Positions 1-11,870 of a stretch of 64,000 bases of DNA are shown here, piece after piece; position 1 is the first letter of the stretch; every line of letters begins with the position of its first letter. The position numbers and the translations under genes are program-made. Under the pieces are notes generated by a model that had not been told where the DNA came from, searched no databases, and saw only the letters and a program-made list of their open reading frames with translations. Source of the stretch: an uncultured Candidatus Saccharibacteria bacterium (lineage in GTDB: Bacteria; Patescibacteriota; Minisyncoccia; Phycocordibacterales; JABMNX01); the NCBI GenBank assembly GCA_964575755.1, contig CAZNRH010000002.1, forward strand, positions 70,351 to 134,350, given 5' to 3'.

Positions 1-127
1 CTCAGCCGAGGTGCATAGAGCTTACACTGAAGCGGGTGCAGACGAGACGCAAATCGCAACTGGATTTATGGAATACGGATCAAAGATATTCCAGGACATT
101 CATATTGCGCTTGCTGAGGAAGATTAA
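1..127 (+). CDS. 3' end of an unidentified protein (partial; gene starts upstream of the window)
   Basis: Open frame ...SAEVHRAYTEAGADETQIATGFMEYGSKIFQDIHIALAEED ending at TAA 125-127. A hairpin plus T-run terminator follows immediately. Confidence 0.35.
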   Translation, partial: SAEVHRAYTEAGADETQIATGFMEYGSKIFQDIHIALAEED

Positions 128-143
128 TTCAAAATATTTTAAG

Positions 144-174
144 CCGTGCGGGTTTTTATCCGCACGGTCTTTTC
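144..174 (+). terminator. rho-independent terminator
   Basis: Stem ccgtgcgg/ccgcacgg followed by tcttttct. Confidence 0.6.
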
Positions 175-468
175 TATTAAAATCCTTTCTTAGTTGCCTT
201 TGGGAAAAAGGGTAACCTGCGAAGTGAATTTGAGATTCAGCTTTTTTATAAAAGTCCTTCGAGTGAACTAGTATATGTATTTATGAATGACGGAATTGCA
301 AACATAAGTCCTATAACAGGAAGTACGACTGCAATAACTGTAACCCAAATAATGACAAGAAAATATTTGCGTATTTTTTCTACTGAAGTAAAAATCTCAT
401 TGAATGTTTCATACTAAAATTATACATCAAAATTAACGGGCTGGCTGTCTGGGACGACGTTAGAACTT

Positions 469-1041
469 TTATTCAAAATGTCTATTCCACGGCAATATAA
501 AATCATCAACAGACTGTAGGCGTTCATCACGAGCATACCTTTGACTTAAGGTGTCTAAAATCTTTTCAAGCACCTTTTCAGAAGAAATTTTATTCATATC
601 TGTAAAAACCTCTACTTCGTCTACTGGTTCGTACCCTTTTGTGTTCTGAATGTGAATTCTATTTCTCTTTTTACGCAACGAATCCATCACATCATAAAAA
701 TTTGTGTTACTTGAATCAAATAAATCGTGCTTCTTTGCTTGCGCAATATAATGTTCAAACTGGTCAAATCTCTTTCCTCGAATAGCTCTGATTATTTCTT
801 GATTAAGATTCAATACACCTTCGTATACATTCGCTTTTATTCTTAATAAAAAATCATGCAGCAGCGCCTCGGAAATACTTACATTTATTAAAATTATAGG
901 TTTTATAAGTAAACATTGATTTTCAGTATTGTTTGCAAGTGCTCTATATTGCTCATAAAGAACTCCTTGCACACGTAGGTTGTAAACTATATTATCTCCA
1001 GTTTTAAATCGACAGATAAAATTTGCAGGTATAGTAAACAT
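469..1041 (-). CDS. hypothetical protein; possible HEPN-like Rx4-6H motif (LRKKRNRIHI) near C-terminus
   Basis: 190-aa ORF, last gene of a three-gene minus-strand operon. No recognisable family beyond the R..H motif. Confidence 0.5.
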   Translation of the reverse strand: MFTIPANFICRFKTGDNIVYNLRVQGVLYEQYRALANNTENQCLLIKPIILINVSISEALLHDFLLRIKANVYEGVLNLNQEIIRAIRGKRFDQFEHYIAQAKKHDLFDSSNTNFYDVMDSLRKKRNRIHIQNTKGYEPVDEVEVFTDMNKISSEKVLEKILDTLSQRYARDERLQSVDDFILPWNRHFE

Positions 1042-1048
1042 AAACTTT

Positions 1049-1906
1049 TTATTTTGTTTGTTCCCCTTCTATCTGAATAGATAAATCATCCATCACGTAG
1101 TGTACAAATTGAGAACCAAGTTCGGTTAAGATATACGGATCAGTACGATCAAAGGCAGATTTACCTTTTCCTTTTGATGTAGATTCTTGTCTTATTACAC
1201 CTCCTGTACTTAAGTCTCTAATTAGTAATCTAAATAAATCAGCTTCTGCAGAACGTTCTTCTGGAATTTCTCCTCTAAGATTTTGCCATATTTCACCTCT
1301 TGTAATCCTTGGGTGATTATATATCTTTGAAATAACTTGAAAATGGAATTCGTGATATTTTTCAATCCAGTCCAGAAAAAATCTAACCCAATCATCTTGA
1401 ACTATACTTATTCCTCCAGCGTTAGTGATCAGCTTCCTTAACATATTTCTTTTTTCAAGCGTCTCTGCTTGATCCCATTTTGAAAAAGTCGCTTTAACTA
1501 ATGCTATATACTCTTCTGATTCGATCCTTTTATTTATTCTATCACCAAACTCTTTAAATCTCCCAAAAATCTGGTTTAAGTCTACTGACAATTGCTTTAA
1601 TTTCTCCTCATGTTCCTTTACCCAGAGATAAATAAATTTATTCATATCTTGCTGGTCATTTTCAGAAGAAAGAGCTGCTGCAGCACTTATTACAGAACCT
1701 ACCCAAGGGAGGCTGCTTAGAGCAGCCATTGAAACTCTGGTGTATTTTAGAGATTCACTACCTAGAAGTCTTTCTAAAATTTCTCTTTCATTTCCAGATA
1801 ATATTTCTATATCTCTTCTTATTACACCCTTAGTTTCACTGACACCTTTTGTGGTACTTTGTGTCTCATCTATCTTTTCTTTACCTTTTTTGCCTTTATC
1901 GTCCAT
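1049..1906 (-). CDS. hypothetical protein
   Basis: 285-aa ORF separated by 8 nt from the downstream gene and 5 nt from the upstream gene in the same operon. No recognisable motifs. Confidence 0.5.
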   Translation of the reverse strand: MDDKGKKGKEKIDETQSTTKGVSETKGVIRRDIEILSGNEREILERLLGSESLKYTRVSMAALSSLPWVGSVISAAAALSSENDQQDMNKFIYLWVKEHEEKLKQLSVDLNQIFGRFKEFGDRINKRIESEEYIALVKATFSKWDQAETLEKRNMLRKLITNAGGISIVQDDWVRFFLDWIEKYHEFHFQVISKIYNHPRITRGEIWQNLRGEIPEERSAEADLFRLLIRDLSTGGVIRQESTSKGKGKSAFDRTDPYILTELGSQFVHYVMDDLSIQIEGEQTK

Positions 1907-1910
1907 TAAT

Positions 1911-2516
1911 TTAAGAATTGAGTTCAGATAAAAGATCTGAATCTTTTTTATGGTTTTCTTTTGACTGCTTAACGAAGCCAGTTATTTTCTGGTTGAGAGT
2001 TTCATTGTAACCATCAACTTGTTGATTAATGTTATCAAGTCGTTGCTGAATCTTCCCTACAATATCGTCTCTTTCTTTTTTTAGTGAATCAGCATCATCT
2101 GAAAAGACAATAATCTCAAATACAATACAATTATCTTCAACCGACACTTCTTCACTCCAAAGCATAAAAGTTGACGGCTTTGATTCAAGTAGTTCTTTGT
2201 CGCCTGAAAATGGAACAGAAAATACCGCGATCTTTTTTTCATATTCCTCACCTCGATCTACACCGAAAGAACTTGGAAAATATTTTGCTGGAATCATTGC
2301 TTTTGTAAGGTCAACTTTTATTTTTGATGGATCCAAGACAACTCTTGCAATTGACTTTTCTTCAACAAGGTTTTGAATGTACTTTTCTTCATCTTTTAAA
2401 TTTACAACAGAAGAATCAGCAAGAACTTCTTCTTCTATTTTTTTTGTTTGTGCTTCAAGGACTGCACCTAAGTCAAACTTTGCAAACAATCTGAAGCCAC
2501 TTCTAGTAAAAAGCAT
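1911..2516 (-). CDS. hypothetical protein
   Basis: 201-aa ORF, first gene of the three-gene operon. No recognisable motifs. Confidence 0.5.
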   Translation of the reverse strand: MLFTRSGFRLFAKFDLGAVLEAQTKKIEEEVLADSSVVNLKDEEKYIQNLVEEKSIARVVLDPSKIKVDLTKAMIPAKYFPSSFGVDRGEEYEKKIAVFSVPFSGDKELLESKPSTFMLWSEEVSVEDNCIVFEIIVFSDDADSLKKERDDIVGKIQQRLDNINQQVDGYNETLNQKITGFVKQSKENHKKDSDLLSELNS

Positions 2517-2742
2517 ATATTTGTGTTTCTAGTAGTCTAGTAATGTTAAATCCAGTATACTCCTAATATTTATATGTCCAACGACTTAATTATTGAGCAA
2601 CAATTTTTATTATCGCTTTTACAATAGAGCCTACTTTTCAGGAATAATCGAAGATGGTAAACGCAACGTTCTAAATCCGTCCAAATCTGAATAATGGTCT
2701 CTTTCAAAATCAGATGTAATTTGTCTTATATTTACAGCCATA

Positions 2743-2773
2743 AATAAACAGCCAGAGTACTCTGGCTGTTTAT
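2743..2773 (-). terminator. hairpin terminator downstream of tRNA-Gln
   Basis: Perfect palindrome aaacagccagagtactctggctgttt flanked by T-rich runs on both strands. Confidence 0.5.
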
Positions 2774-2794
2774 TTTGTGTGTCATTTCGTTCAA

Positions 2795-2865
2795 AGCTGC
2801 CGGACTAGGACTCGAACCTAGATAGCTAGCACCAAAAGCTAGTGTCCTGCCATTAGACGATCCGG
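2795..2865 (-). tRNA. tRNA-Gln (anticodon UUG)
   Basis: Manual cloverleaf: acceptor TGCCGGA/TCCGGCA with U1-A72. Three-bp D-stem GTC/GAC. Anticodon stem CTAGC/GCTAG with loop TTTTGGT. T-arm CTAGG-TTCGAGT-CCTAG. Discriminator G. Confidence 0.8.
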
Positions 2866-3011
2866 CAGCTTTGAAAACAATGTCGTTTTATTATATTAAA
2901 TTTTAAAGTACCAAAAACCTACCCTATCGCCTGTTTCGTTAGACTCAACAACGGCGATTTTCTGTTCCGCAGAAATCGGATGAAATATAAAGCAGTTTAT
3001 ATTTCATTCCC

Positions 3012-3029
3012 ACCACTTAGACGATCCGG
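3012..3029. repeat. 15-17 nt direct copy of the tRNA-Gln 5' end (ttagacgatccggca)
   Basis: Exact 15-nt match to 2851-2865, about 150 bp from the tRNA gene. Confidence 0.6.
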
Positions 3030-3101
3030 CAATTATTCTATTGTCTACTACAATATTAAATTACTACGTAATATTGCCTTAATTAAAGTATGTAATCAAG
3101 T

Positions 3102-4157
3102 CTATTTAAGTAACTTCACAAGAGCGAGCTCTACTGGAAGTTGAGGAATATATGAACGAGATATTGCATCATATGCTCCAAGGAGCTCATATAGTACAAC
3201 TGAATTAATATGAGACTCCTTGCCCTCACTTAATTTTTTAAGAAATTCAAAATCTTCTTTTACAAACTGCTCTTTAAACCCTTTTTCCATTTCTTTTGCA
3301 TATTTAAGGAGCAAGACCACACGTACTTTATGGAGTACTAGCTTCATAAATGTTTTTATATCAAGGTTCTGTGCCACTACGTCCCCTACAACCTCAAGTG
3401 CATTTTCAAGCTTTTTCTCTGCAATAGCTTCGATAAAATTATTAATAAGCTTCCCTTTTGGCGCCCCTGTTACAAGCTCTACTTCTTCTATGCTTACTTT
3501 ATTGTATTTTGAAGATGAAAGTATCTTTTGCAAAACTCCATGTGCATCACGAAACGAACCCTCTGCAAGCATCGCTATTAAATCCGCTGAAGCTGGCTCT
3601 AGTGAGAATTTTTCCTTCTTCGCGATATCCGTTATCATTTTTGCTAAAATTTGTCTGCTTGGTTTTTTAAATGTAAAACTCTGACATCGCGATATTATCG
3701 TCTCTGGTAACTTCCCTTCTTCTGTTGTTGCCAGCATAAACACAACATGCTTTGGTGGCTCTTCAAGTGTCTTTAAGAGTGCATTAAAAGCTTCTTTAGT
3801 TAGCATGTGTACCTCGTCAATAATATAAACTTTGTACGGAGACTCAAATGGAAGTGTGTGTACTGACTCACGAAGTGCTCGTATGTCATCAATACCACGA
3901 TTTGAAGCAGCATCGATTTCATACATATCATTCTGTGATGCTCCTATCGCTCGCGCCAGTATACGCGCAATACTTGTCTTCCCTGTTCCTCGAGAACCAG
4001 AGAAAAGATATGCGTGTGATATATTTCCCTGCTCTATTGCACCCTCAAGCACAGAGACAATATGCTCCTGCCCGAGCACATCTTTAAACTCCTCAGGACG
4101 ATATTTCCTATAGAGCGCTGTTTGTCTATTTTGGCTGGCATTAGAATCTGCTGACAT
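3102..4157 (-). CDS. dnaX: DNA polymerase III subunit gamma/tau (short form)
   Basis: AAA+ Walker A GSRGTGKTS. DEVH box IIDEVHML. Sensor region TIISRCQSFTFKKP. Confidence 0.9.
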   Translation of the reverse strand: MSADSNASQNRQTALYRKYRPEEFKDVLGQEHIVSVLEGAIEQGNISHAYLFSGSRGTGKTSIARILARAIGASQNDMYEIDAASNRGIDDIRALRESVHTLPFESPYKVYIIDEVHMLTKEAFNALLKTLEEPPKHVVFMLATTEEGKLPETIISRCQSFTFKKPSRQILAKMITDIAKKEKFSLEPASADLIAMLAEGSFRDAHGVLQKILSSSKYNKVSIEEVELVTGAPKGKLINNFIEAIAEKKLENALEVVGDVVAQNLDIKTFMKLVLHKVRVVLLLKYAKEMEKGFKEQFVKEDFEFLKKLSEGKESHINSVVLYELLGAYDAISRSYIPQLPVELALVKLLK

Positions 4158-7306: not shown

Positions 7307-8572
7307 TTATTTTGATATTATGTCCTTCCCTAAATATTTTTGCAACACTTCTGGAACTTTAATAGATCCATCTTCCTGTTGGAAATTTTCTACAAGCGAT
7401 ACTAGGATTCTTGGTGTTGGTATCGCGGTGCAGTTAAGAGAGTGGACATATTTAGCTTTTCCATTCTTGTCTCTATATTTAATATTAAACCGTCGTGTTT
7501 GGAAATCATGGAAATACGACGCTGAACTTATCTCGCGATATTTTTCTTCAAGTGGCACCCAAAGCTCAATGTCATACTTCTTAACCTGACCTTGTCCTAA
7601 ATCTCCACCACAATTAAGTACTGTGTGATACGGAATATTAAGTGATTCAATAAACTCTTCTGTATTTCTATTTATCCATTCATGTAGTCGCACAGACTCT
7701 TCATGATTAGCTTCGCATAAAACAACCTGTTCAAGCTTAAAAAACTCATGCACTCTAATGAGTCCTTTTGTATCCTTTCCATGACTTCCTGCTTCCCTCC
7801 TATAACACGGGGAGAACGACAAGAATTTTACTGGAAAAATCTTCTCATCTAGAATCTCATCGGCATAATATCCCATTGTTGATATCTCTGACGTACCAGC
7901 AAGATAATCATCGTCTTGCGTCTTATATATATCATCAACTTCGTTTGGTAAATGTCCTGTGCCGTATAAATTACTCTTACGAACTATCGAGGGAACAATC
8001 ATTGGGGTAAACTCTTTTTTAAGGAAAAAGTCCATTGCGTAATTCCAAATAGCCCATGACAAAAGTGCGCCATCATTTTTAAGAAAGTACCCACGGAACC
8101 CATGCACCTTTGTACCACGCTCAAAATCAACCATGTCCAGCGCTGTCATTATATCTACATGATTTTTTGGCTCAAACGAAAACTGAGTTTTCTCTCCCCA
8201 CACCTTTATTTCTTTATTATCTTCATCATCTTTTCCCTCTGGCACTGACATGTCTGGAACATTTGGAACTTGTAGCATAAGCGTATGCCACTTTTCCATA
8301 ACACCCTTCAACTCTTCTTCTTCTTTTTGTAATACTGCCTTAAGTTCTTTCATTTCAGAAATAGCCTGATAGCGAACATTCTGGTCTTCTGACTTTGCTA
8401 TCTCTTCATTTGCTTTATTTTGTCTTGCGCGTTTTTCTTCCACTGATTTCAATATCTCTCGCCTTTTATCATCAAGAGTAATAAGACTATCAATATCAAA
8501 ATCCATATGCTTTTTTCGAGCACCTTCCTTAACAAGATCTTTGTTTTCTCTAATGAAGTTAATATCTAACAT
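7307..8572 (-). CDS. serS: seryl-tRNA synthetase
   Basis: N-terminal coiled-coil arm and class II core. Typical SerRS sequence and length of 421 aa. Confidence 0.9.
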   Translation of the reverse strand: MLDINFIRENKDLVKEGARKKHMDFDIDSLITLDDKRREILKSVEEKRARQNKANEEIAKSEDQNVRYQAISEMKELKAVLQKEEEELKGVMEKWHTLMLQVPNVPDMSVPEGKDDEDNKEIKVWGEKTQFSFEPKNHVDIMTALDMVDFERGTKVHGFRGYFLKNDGALLSWAIWNYAMDFFLKKEFTPMIVPSIVRKSNLYGTGHLPNEVDDIYKTQDDDYLAGTSEISTMGYYADEILDEKIFPVKFLSFSPCYRREAGSHGKDTKGLIRVHEFFKLEQVVLCEANHEESVRLHEWINRNTEEFIESLNIPYHTVLNCGGDLGQGQVKKYDIELWVPLEEKYREISSASYFHDFQTRRFNIKYRDKNGKAKYVHSLNCTAIPTPRILVSLVENFQQEDGSIKVPEVLQKYLGKDIISK

Positions 8573-8609
8573 AATTACTGTTTATATACGTGATACGATA
8601 CATATTACT

Positions 8610-9662: not shown

Positions 9663-11870
9663 ATGAAACTATTAATTGTAGAATCGCCAGCAAAAGCAAA
9701 AACTATTTCAAAATATCTTGATGATAAATACACAGTACGCGCATCTGTGGGGCATGTTCGTGATTTACCAAAAAGTAACAAAAATGCTATCGATATAGAT
9801 GCAGGTTTTGTCCCCAACTATGAAATATCAAAAGGTAAAGAAGACATCATAAATGAACTTAAAAAACTAGCTAAAAAATCTGATGAAGTGCTCCTTGCAA
9901 CTGACCCCGACCGAGAAGGTGAAGCAATCGCATGGCACTTGAAAGAAATACTAAAACTTAAAGACCCTAAACGAGTTGTGTTTAACGAAATTACAAAAGA
10001 AGCTGTGCAAGAAGCTGTTGCACAGCCAAGATTGATAGATGACAATCTGCGTAAAGCTCAAGAAGCTAGACGCATACTAGATAGACTTGTTGGTTATGAC
10101 CTTTCTGGATTGATATGGAAAAAGCTACGCTATGGACTATCTGCAGGACGCGTTCAGTCACCCGCACTTCGAATCATAATGGAGCGTGAGCGTGAGATAC
10201 GTGCGTTTATACCTGAAGATTTTTGGGTACTAACTGCCGACGTAACAACTGCAAAAAAAGTAGCTTTTCAGCTTACGTGTACTAAAGAACCAAAAACAGA
10301 AGAAGAGGCAAAAAGGATCTGTAAAGTTGGAAAGAAGGGGGCTTGGGTGATTAAGGACGTTATAGAAACGAAAGCCAAACGCTCGCCGAAACCACCATTT
10401 ATAACATCAACACTGCAACAAGTTGCGAGCACTCGGCTAGGTTTTGCGCCAAGTCGTACTATGGGTATTGCACAGAAGTTATACGAATCTGGACATATAA
10501 CATATATGCGTACTGATAGTACCAATCTAAGCAATCAAGCACTTACCCATATTGAAGAAGTTGTTAAAGATAAGTATGGAGCTAAGTTCAGTAACAAAAA
10601 TGTATTTAAAGCCAAGAGCAAAGGTGCACAAGAAGCACATGAAGCTATTCGACCTTCAAACTTCCTTAAAGAAAGTGCTGGTAATAACGAAGACCAAAAG
10701 AGTCTCTATACTTTAATTTGGGAAAGGACTGTTGCTTCTCAGATGTCAGATGCAGAAATACTGCGCACTAAAATAACTGCCAATATAATAAATGAAACAG
10801 AAAGTAATGCTATTCCAAATTTTGCTACCAATGGATCACGAGTTATGTTTGAAGGATGGCTCAAGGCAGATCCACGAGCACGCGGTGAAGATGTTGAACT
10901 TCCCAAAGTAATGAAAGATGAACCTATAACGCTTAAAGATATGGGGTCAGAAGGTAAACAAACCCAGCCACCTTTCCGTTATACAGAGGCTGGTCTTATT
11001 AAAAAACTTGAAGAACGTGGCATTGGACGCCCCTCCACATATGCATCTATCATGAGGACACTCCAAGACCGTGAATATGTAATAAAAGAAGGACGAACTC
11101 TCTTCCCCACTGACACTGGAGATGTGGTGAGCTCATTTCTTGAGAAGAATTTTGAAAAATATATCAGTGATTCGTTTACAGCAGAGATGGAAAATGAGCT
11201 TGATGAAATAGCACAAGGAGAACGCAAATATGAAAAAACATTAAAAGATTTCTATACTCCATTTAGTAAAGATGTTAAATCAAAAGAGAGTATGGACAAG
11301 ATAACAAATCTTGGCGACGCCCCAGATGAATTTGACTGTCCTAAGTGTAAAAGCAAAATGATTATCAAGCTTGGACGAGGTGGTAAGTTTATGAGTTGCG
11401 ACAAGTTTCCAGAATGTATAGGCGCTCGGACAATAGAAGGAAAGATTATAGAACCAGACAAACCAATTGGAAAACATTCCGAAACAGGAGAGGATGTATA
11501 TCTGCTCACAGGGCGTTTTGGTCCATATGTTCAAATGGGAGCAAGTCCAGCAAAAGGAGAGAAAAAAAAAGAAAAGCCACGCCGAGCGAGCGTGCCAAAA
11601 GAAAAAGATATCGACGAAGTCACAATGATAGACGCAGAGAAATATTTGAGCCTACCTCGCATACTCGGAAAGCATCCTGAGACAAACGAAGACATCACAG
11701 CAAGCATAGGACGCTTTGGACCATTTATCGTGCATGATGGAGATTTTCGCTCACTGAAAACAGATGATGTGTACGCTATAAAATTAGATCGGGCTCTTGA
11801 AATACTAGCAGAAGAAAAAAAGACTCGAGGTAAGAAAAAGGCGGTAAAAAAGAAGGCGGTAAAAAAGTAG
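9663..11870 (+). CDS. topA: DNA topoisomerase I
   Basis: TOPRIM start MKLLIVESPAKAKTI. C-terminal zinc ribbon CPKCKS...C and a lysine-rich tail. Confidence 0.95.
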   Translation: MKLLIVESPAKAKTISKYLDDKYTVRASVGHVRDLPKSNKNAIDIDAGFVPNYEISKGKEDIINELKKLAKKSDEVLLATDPDREGEAIAWHLKEILKLKDPKRVVFNEITKEAVQEAVAQPRLIDDNLRKAQEARRILDRLVGYDLSGLIWKKLRYGLSAGRVQSPALRIIMEREREIRAFIPEDFWVLTADVTTAKKVAFQLTCTKEPKTEEEAKRICKVGKKGAWVIKDVIETKAKRSPKPPFITSTLQQVASTRLGFAPSRTMGIAQKLYESGHITYMRTDSTNLSNQALTHIEEVVKDKYGAKFSNKNVFKAKSKGAQEAHEAIRPSNFLKESAGNNEDQKSLYTLIWERTVASQMSDAEILRTKITANIINETESNAIPNFATNGSRVMFEGWLKADPRARGEDVELPKVMKDEPITLKDMGSEGKQTQPPFRYTEAGLIKKLEERGIGRPSTYASIMRTLQDREYVIKEGRTLFPTDTGDVVSSFLEKNFEKYISDSFTAEMENELDEIAQGERKYEKTLKDFYTPFSKDVKSKESMDKITNLGDAPDEFDCPKCKSKMIIKLGRGGKFMSCDKFPECIGARTIEGKIIEPDKPIGKHSETGEDVYLLTGRFGPYVQMGASPAKGEKKKEKPRRASVPKEKDIDEVTMIDAEKYLSLPRILGKHPETNEDITASIGRFGPFIVHDGDFRSLKTDDVYAIKLDRALEILAEEKKTRGKKKAVKKKAVKK

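Follow-up and report, generated by a model that had tools for sequence, protein, structure and literature searches.

Several described systems resemble the locus examined here in part. HEC-08 is a validated single-gene HEPN defence system in which the motif histidine is required. Retron-Kva2, a type IX retron described in a preprint, combines a 174-amino-acid (aa) HEPN protein with a 245-aa protein, built of helical bundles and a C-terminal helix-turn-helix (HTH) domain, that sterically masks the HEPN active site. The HTH protein alone mitigates HEPN toxicity, acting as a steric antitoxin, and the HEPN protein, which has no Rx4-6H motif and uses H64 and R122, is an active RNase despite this non-canonical arrangement. 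A further reference point is PDC-S54, a single-gene phage-defence candidate in PADLOC; the PDC systems are 145 candidates predicted by 'guilt-by-embedding' in BREX, DISARM and type I restriction-modification (R-M) loci, and PDC-S54 is not named in any paper found by our literature search. Here we compare these systems with three consecutive genes, designated A, B and C, on the minus strand of a 64,000-nucleotide (nt) stretch (hereafter 'the window') of contig CAZNRH010000002.1 from an uncultured Candidatus Saccharibacteria bacterium. With about even confidence, we read the locus as a defence islet, probably expressed as one transcript, that comprises two separable predicted modules: an A-B gene pair and C, a solo gene for a predicted HEPN RNase.

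The three open reading frames (ORFs) were confirmed exactly as originally described, with gene A (201 aa) at positions 1911-2516, gene B (285 aa) at 1049-1906 and gene C (190 aa) at 469-1041, separated by gaps of 4 nt (A/B, 1907-1910) and 7 nt (B/C, 1042-1048). The original prediction found no recognisable family among the three products. This holds for Pfam, NCBIfam and PHROGs, but not for PADLOC, where the PDC-S54 model recognises A (E=1.8e-34); B and C have no match in any library.

Protein C carries the sequence LRKKRNRIHI at residues 122-131, which had been proposed to represent the Rx4-6H signature of HEPN RNases. The bare Rx4-6H pattern carries no weight because it occurs at least once in 68% of shuffled versions of C, and a second match in the protein (R91-x5-H97) is not conserved. 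Conservation of the motif, unlike the bare pattern, exceeds chance expectation as judged from an alignment of 31 homologs (37-73% identity). R126, N127, R128 and H130 are invariant in 31/31 sequences and R123 is kept in 28/31, and together these residues define a putative catalytic motif, R123-K-K-R126-N127-R128-I-H130, encoded at 652-675 (minus strand). The arginine and histidine positions on which the original prediction staked its HEPN assignment are thus conserved. The proposed spacing, however, is obtained only between R123 and H130 (R123-x6-H130), whereas the invariant core is RNRxH, or Rx3H when counted from R126.

Structure prediction, which had been recommended as a check, recovers a HEPN fold for C. 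The AlphaFold model, with a predicted local distance difference test score (pLDDT) of 89.2 and a predicted template modelling score (pTM) of 0.87, contains a core four-helix up-and-down bundle supplemented by terminal beta-strands and an insert at approximately residues 71-114. Foldseek places HepT structures at ranks 2-11, with probabilities up to 0.96 and E values of 0.24 or more. At the sequence level, no HEPN model in Pfam, NCBIfam, PADLOC or PHROGs matches C. None of the Pfam HEPN models matches the 31 family members either, and these members show no recurrent HEPN family and only one weak match to DUF4145 (E=0.027); a profile of the family finds nothing relevant among Protein Data Bank (PDB) sequences. 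Because no curated sequence model recognises C or its relatives, the family is new, and on the strength of its structural model we assign C to the HEPN fold as a member of a sequence family for which no model existed. By analogy with characterised HEPN proteins, we predict that C is a metal-independent RNase of the abortive infection (Abi) or toxin type.

The structures most similar to C are the HepT toxins of HEPN-MNT systems (SO_3166, PDB 5YEP; 7AE2; 8XDJ), which like C are small and all-helical and have conserved Arg and His residues clustered behind the third core helix. C differs from HepT in that identity is only 6-13% with no profile-level match, in being approximately 50 residues longer with its terminal beta-strands and the insert at residues 71-114, and in having an invariant RNRxH rather than an Rx4H motif. 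We considered whether C could be the toxin of a HEPN-MNT toxin-antitoxin pair and rejected this assignment. In the window, the neighbours of C are gene B and a non-coding stretch, and no MNT gene is present there or among 40 immediate same-strand neighbours of C homologs, for which nucleotidyltransferases are absent from the 25 Pfam families listed. C also resembles stand-alone HEPN proteins of Abi and defence systems (AbiV, HEC-08/DUF3644 and the HEPN domains of AbiA, LsoA and RnlA) in being a single gene that resides in defence islands or mobile elements and has no fixed partner. It shares no sequence or profile similarity with these proteins, and its structural match to them is weaker than that to HepT.

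The genomic distribution of C is broad. We found 57 homologs in a non-redundant protein set, and members in 60 species-representative genomes or genomic loci from many phyla, including Patescibacteria, Alpha-, Beta- and Gammaproteobacteria, Planctomycetota, Verrucomicrobiota, Omnitrophota, Eremiobacterota, Dormiibacterota and Ignavibacteriales; another homolog is located on a Mesorhizobium plasmid. Neighbouring genes are unrelated from locus to locus. Among the 40 immediate same-strand neighbours are LmuA, DpdF, PsyrT, PifA, type IIG R-M enzymes, GajB-like helicases, a defence-associated reverse transcriptase (PADLOC RTasHel, DRT), KAP NTPase and Mrr. One homolog adjoins a serine recombinase together with a Gabija-like gene pair, in which an OLD-TOPRIM ATPase is combined with a UvrD helicase, and others, in one locus each, adjoin Vsr with a C5-methylase, a BglII-like endonuclease, or miaA. 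The closest relative of C (73% identity) is solo and follows a gap of 375 nt. Given this cross-phylum distribution and the lack of conserved neighbours, C appears to be a horizontally mobile gene that is complete in itself and is associated with defence islands.

Some individual loci of the C family have unusual arrangements. A Dormiibacterota locus (L049) carries two C-family paralogs approximately 2 kb apart (7668-8576 and 9855-10262). In a Hyphomonas metagenome-assembled genome (L002/L016, 7465-9327), a 179-aa gene upstream of the C homolog overlaps it by 4 nt and a 210-aa gene follows it, and the block sits between the serine recombinase and the Gabija-like pair. The 210-aa gene is found beside C in three retrieved loci (L002, L003 and L016, which represent at most two independent contigs), and these genes may constitute a local partner set for C that is unlike that of the window. 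One C homolog (L055, 7989-8559) and one A homolog (L082, 4327-4938) are apparently split by frameshifts, which suggests that these modules undergo pseudogenisation in some genomes.

Protein A aligns over residues 8-200 with positions 5-199 of the 410-position PDC-S54 profile (117.9 bits), and the C-terminal half of the profile, with its D...ExK residues, has no counterpart in A. A is therefore not a full-length, single-gene PDC-S54 protein; as judged from these alignments, it is a stand-alone version of the PDC-S54 N-terminal domain. A comparison by hhalign between the short form of A and full-length PDC-S54-type proteins supports this assignment (probability 100%, E=1.5e-67, 209 columns). An exhaustive HMMER search yielded 500 relatives of A, which occur either alone as proteins of approximately 200 aa or as the N-terminal domain of 360-420-aa proteins. 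We clustered by BLAST the C-terminal halves of 67 long relatives found within the best 150 of these 500 matches, and obtained 49 halves of the unannotated PDC-S54 type, a class of 17 that includes the TIR-matching members, and one singleton. The Pfam TIR_2 model was matched in four scanned members of the 17-sequence class, with E values down to 1.6e-20, and in the long-form alignment a single sequence matches guanylate cyclase (E=3e-11).

The C-terminal half of PDC-S54 itself carries a conserved GKTDILL...FVAECKFW...TWRD signature (alignment A7, for example P0190 and P0210). Read as D...ExK, this signature suggests a PD-(D/E)XK nuclease; matches to DUF234, Vsr and NERD are weak, and nothing was found in the PDB. 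We also asked whether A and B together might be a split PDC-S54 protein. This possibility was rejected, as hhalign and phmmer reveal no similarity of B to the PDC-S54 C-terminal domain, and the same is true of C, such that neither protein is homologous to the missing half.

In A itself, only G, P, F and N residues are conserved, and none of the conserved positions is a polar or catalytic candidate. Residues ~141-200 (1917-2096, minus strand) form a putative amphipathic or coiled-coil segment at the C terminus; the coiled-coil reading comes from weak compositional matches to apolipoprotein, TRIM coiled-coil and syntaxin helices. The A family profile gave only spurious or compositional matches to PDB sequences. 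Because the N-terminal domain is non-catalytic and is fused elsewhere to swappable output domains, A is most likely a sensor or assembly module that lacks catalytic residues of its own.

Protein B belongs to a very large family. At least 2,931 homologs at E<=0.001 were found among 8,000 candidates scored in a protein set made non-redundant at 90% identity; most are approximately 280 aa long and of metagenomic origin, none is annotated and none carries a Pfam domain. B has no significant match in PADLOC, Pfam, NCBIfam or PHROGs, its family has zero matches in 72,556 plasmids, and PDB sequences give only spurious or compositional matches to the family profile. The AlphaFold model (pLDDT 76.7, pTM 0.68) consists of a disordered, Lys-rich N terminus, a helical domain spanning residues 38-197 and a winged helix at the C terminus. 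Within the helical domain, small and hydrophobic residues make up a conserved hairpin (residues 55-82, Y55...PWVG...E82; 1661-1744, minus strand), modelled as two helices at 50-64 and 67-81, in which Y55, A62, W68 and G70 are invariant. The Kyte-Doolittle maximum over 19 residues is 1.53 for B and has a median of 1.59 for the family, values that are borderline for a membrane segment.

The winged-helix domain of B (residues ~198-272; 1091-1315, minus strand) adopts a winged helix-turn-helix fold in the model, and in structure it comes closest to MarR and ArsR-type regulators. A profile match to histone H1/H5 is weak (E=0.15). The putative recognition helix, which reads SAEADLFRLLIRDL, is acidic rather than basic, no regulator family in Pfam or NCBIfam matches, and the domain as a whole is acidic (isoelectric point, pI, 5.6). 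This acidity suits protein binding better than DNA binding.

The immediate partners of B homologs are extremely diverse and include TIR, AbiJ, Hypoth_Ymh, KwaB, Schlafen/AlbA_2, AbiGi, PD-(D/E)XK, ThsB-like and Aga_HEPN proteins as well as several PDC candidates. Of these, we take AbiJ, Hypoth_Ymh and Aga_HEPN to be HEPN-type families. Serine recombinases and other mobile-element genes are often nearby, and in some loci (for example L069) the B gene appears isolated. There is also a connection to TIR-based defence of the Thoeris ThsB-like kind: the A domain is fused to TIR_2, TIR genes neighbour B, and ThsB models match some B neighbours. Unlike such systems, the trio in the window encodes no TIR domain.

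Several other genes at the retrieved loci were inspected individually. In a 2.3-Mb genome (L065, 5042-6004; also L066-L068), a 320-aa gene precedes B with a 4-nt overlap. Its product, which starts MTLVISTLTSSGIVLTADSR, matches nothing in Pfam or PADLOC and by eye resembles an N-terminal-nucleophile or proteasome-beta-like hydrolase; the element that contains this locus also carries a serine recombinase, an rve integrase and Phage_rep_O. In L090 (4868-5692), a 274-aa gene downstream of a B-A pair encodes a HELIH (HExxH) motif that on visual inspection suggests a zinc metallopeptidase. A 149-aa protein in L100 looks by eye like a PD-(D/E)XK nuclease, an impression left unconfirmed by its sole annotated match ('MarR family transcriptional regulator'), and the Schlafen/AlbA_2 look of a 429-aa protein in L145 is likewise unconfirmed, its sole annotation being 'ATP-binding protein'. 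Searches with a 435-aa protein in L087 were uninformative.

The relationship between the three genes was assessed with profile-level searches of 89 loci that carry B homologs and 64 loci that carry C homologs. Neither A nor B homologs are present in any C locus (0/64), and no C homolog is present in any B locus (0/89). By comparison, an A-like gene lies directly beside B in 9/89 B loci, where it may precede B, follow B or be convergent with it, and this linkage is still seen at identities of only 22-29% (A) and 44-59% (B). The closest relative of the A-B pair (L072; A 81%, B 86% identity) retains both genes with the same 4-nt gap; a glycosyltransferase gene lies upstream of the pair, and the 624 nt after B contain no ORF and no C homolog. 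On these results, the three-gene unit is specific to the genome represented by the window. A conserved three-gene operon is rejected on these counts, and the single three-gene system proposed in the original prediction is not supported; examination of gene neighbourhoods across genomes, as had been advised, finds the trio in none of the other loci searched. The proposal of an accessory or defence role fared better, in that it fits the contexts in which all three families occur in other genomes.

Co-transcription of the trio, which had been suggested from its compact spacing, remains plausible. In a crude gene call over the 64-kb window that yielded 41 same-strand neighbour pairs, the median gap is 119 nt and only 8/41 pairs are separated by 10 nt or less, and so two tiny gaps in a row are unusual for this window. 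A terminator scan called no terminator-like site within the trio. Its only call is a G+C-rich hairpin at 143-168 (plus strand), which is located 3' of both C and a convergent gene annotated as dihydroorotate dehydrogenase (DHO_dh). The two small gaps and the lack of an internal terminator make it likely that A, B and C are co-transcribed, and we conclude that they probably form one unit. The presumed site of the promoter is the 225-nt intergenic region 5' of A (2517-2741, minus strand), in which a promoter scan called no sigma-70-like site. The best sigma-70-like match of the region lies inside B (1316-1343, minus strand; TTTTCA-16-TATAAT, 10/12), approximately 275 nt 5' of the start of C. Although it might serve C as an internal promoter, this match carries no evidential weight because promoter-like hits are fewer in the region (8) than in shuffled sequences (11).

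On the longer public contig, the order of genes is a dnaX-like clamp-loader gene (DNA polymerase III), tRNA-Gln, A, B, C, a short non-coding stretch and the convergent DHO_dh gene. The non-coding stretch after C (approximately 216-468) contains no credible ORF, and a search there for a small antitoxin or membrane-peptide ORF found none. The tRNA-Gln(ttg) gene at 2796-2867 (minus strand), called by ARAGORN and by Rfam (RF00005, 58.3 bits), is the upstream neighbour of the trio, with 279 nt between its 3' end and gene A; it is the only Rfam match accepted over positions 1-3200. Directly 3' of the tRNA is a perfect 17+17-nt palindrome (34 nt; 2742-2775, minus strand), identified by repeat analysis and sequence reading, which separates the intergenic region upstream of A from the tRNA gene. 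This hairpin probably ends the tRNA-Gln transcript. It is not followed by a T-run and hence was not called by the terminator scan, and the Rfam match to mir-192 at this position is spurious.

For the mechanism, we infer the following sequence of events. C would likely dimerise, by analogy with HepT, AbiV, LsoA/RnlA and HEC-08, so that R126, N127, R128 and H130 cluster to form a metal-independent RNase site. Upon infection, the enzyme would cut host or phage RNA (tRNA, rRNA or mRNA), with growth arrest or abortive infection as the consequence. Because C has no fixed partner in dozens of genomes, it would have to be self-restrained or only conditionally active. A, for its part, would act as a free-standing sensor or assembly module split from a PDC-S54-type protein, and B, its recurrent genomic partner, might serve as an output or adaptor component that binds protein or nucleic acid or possibly associates with a membrane.

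Some of our observations weigh against this picture of a solo HEPN RNase gene beside a separate A-B pair. The Foldseek E values for C are by themselves not significant, Pfam contains no HEPN profile that matches the protein, and, by the alignment, canonical Rx4-6H spacing is reached via the non-invariant R123 only. Neither A as a whole nor the N-terminal domain of B has a fold assignment. Defence-rich neighbourhoods are circumstantial evidence, and gaps of 4 and 7 nt are as compatible with functional coupling as with co-expression alone. Moreover, toxin-type genes flank other A-B pairs and B genes. In L090, a very distant B-A pair, a 433-aa gene lies approximately 200 nt upstream, and 6/6 of its annotated plasmid homologs are called 'HEPN domain-containing protein'. 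TIR genes related to the A-TIR fusions are located beside an A-B pair in L128 and directly upstream of B in L104 and L149. C could therefore be a swappable effector of the A-B pair.

This last point leads to the main alternative, that the trio is one integrated system, in which A senses, B binds and restrains the effector, and C is the swappable effector used in this genome, in the manner of a type IX retron without reverse transcriptase or multicopy single-stranded DNA (msDNA); in other genomes, the A-B pair or a B chassis would use TIR proteins, other HEPN families or nucleases instead. We regard this as possible, if rather unlikely. The small gaps without an internal terminator favour it, as do the HEPN-annotated gene of L090, the TIR genes of L104, L128 and L149, the other neighbours of B (AbiJ, Hypoth_Ymh, Aga_HEPN, Schlafen and PD-(D/E)XK) and the acidic winged helix, which is apt for protein binding. 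The 285-aa protein B, with its helical domain and winged helix, and the 190-aa HEPN protein C, encoded immediately after it, are also strikingly like the 245- and 174-aa proteins of Retron-Kva2. That likeness is one of size and architecture, and the trio differs from the retron in gene order (the retron HEPN gene precedes the winged-helix gene) and in having neither a reverse transcriptase nor an msr/msd non-coding RNA at the locus, where Rfam finds only the tRNA and the flanks are housekeeping genes. B and C co-occur in no other locus among the 64 C and 89 B loci surveyed. The closest A-B pair (L072) has no adjacent effector, some B genes appear isolated, and the closest relatives of C are solo, which argues that C can do without B as an antidote. 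Because defence genes cluster anyway, an adjacent toxin gene is expected even if the genes are not functionally coupled.

Two further explanations are less likely. If B were a winged-helix transcription factor, C a non-catalytic HEPN-like binder of nucleotides or proteins, and A a structural protein, the trio would be accessory cargo that serves regulation or some other physiological function and has no defence role. The MarR and ArsR-type structural matches of B, the housekeeping flanks (the dnaX-like clamp-loader and DHO_dh genes) and the fact that PDC-S54 is itself a predicted candidate are compatible with this explanation. We nevertheless consider it improbable, as an invariant Arg/Asn/Arg/His cluster is hard to explain in a non-catalytic domain, all three families are patchily distributed across phyla in mobile-element contexts with defence-rich neighbours, the A domain is fused to TIR elsewhere, and the putative recognition helix of B is acidic within a domain of pI 5.6. 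Similarly improbable, in our estimation, is an origin of the trio as the cargo carried by an integrative element with tRNA-Gln as its target. Such an element would explain both the position of the trio 279 nt from the tRNA 3' end and its composition (33.2% G+C versus 37.5% for the window), and in other genomes serine recombinases often adjoin B and C homologs. A 15-nt sequence, TTAGACGATCCGGCA, is exactly repeated in direct orientation, at 2853-2867, where it corresponds to the 5' end of the tRNA as read on the minus strand, and at 3017-3031, in the spacer that separates the tRNA from the clamp-loader gene. The second copy looks like the remnant of a tRNA 5' fragment. This repeat encloses only ~150 nt upstream of the tRNA and not the trio, copies of the tRNA 3' end that would flank the trio as direct repeats are absent, and no integrase or recombinase gene lies within 10 kb downstream of C or between the clamp-loader gene and the trio. 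The tRNA adjacency pointed out in the original prediction is real, but the locus lacks the integrase and the bracketing att repeats of a tRNA-integrated island.

Under the reading that we favour, of an A-B pair and a solo C gene in one islet, C would add to the known HEPN RNases a new sequence family that has an atypical invariant RNRxH core and occurs solo in defence islands across phyla, and it would offer a case for studying how solo HEPN toxins stay silent. PDC-S54 emerges as a two-part protein: its N-terminal module recurs in combination with TIR, nuclease-like or cyclase outputs, and a split form exists as well. B represents a very large unannotated family that recurs in defence islands and is a partner of that N-terminal module. 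A more ambitious hypothesis, which we judge unlikely, is that the B family provides a winged-helix 'chassis' that docks and silences interchangeable toxins, with A as the infection sensor that releases the toxin. If this were true, the trio would be a retron-independent counterpart of the winged-helix-HEPN mechanism of type IX retrons and would represent a new modular defence class, widespread in uncultivated bacteria, whose swappable toxins would be this HEPN family here and TIR proteins, other HEPN families or nucleases elsewhere. These findings extend known themes and are unsurprising in kind; their value lies in a set of compact, testable candidates and in the chassis hypothesis for B. Since the homologs of A, B and C come largely from metagenome bins of Patescibacteria, a group in which few defence systems are annotated, the locus provides a concrete candidate for defence in these organisms.

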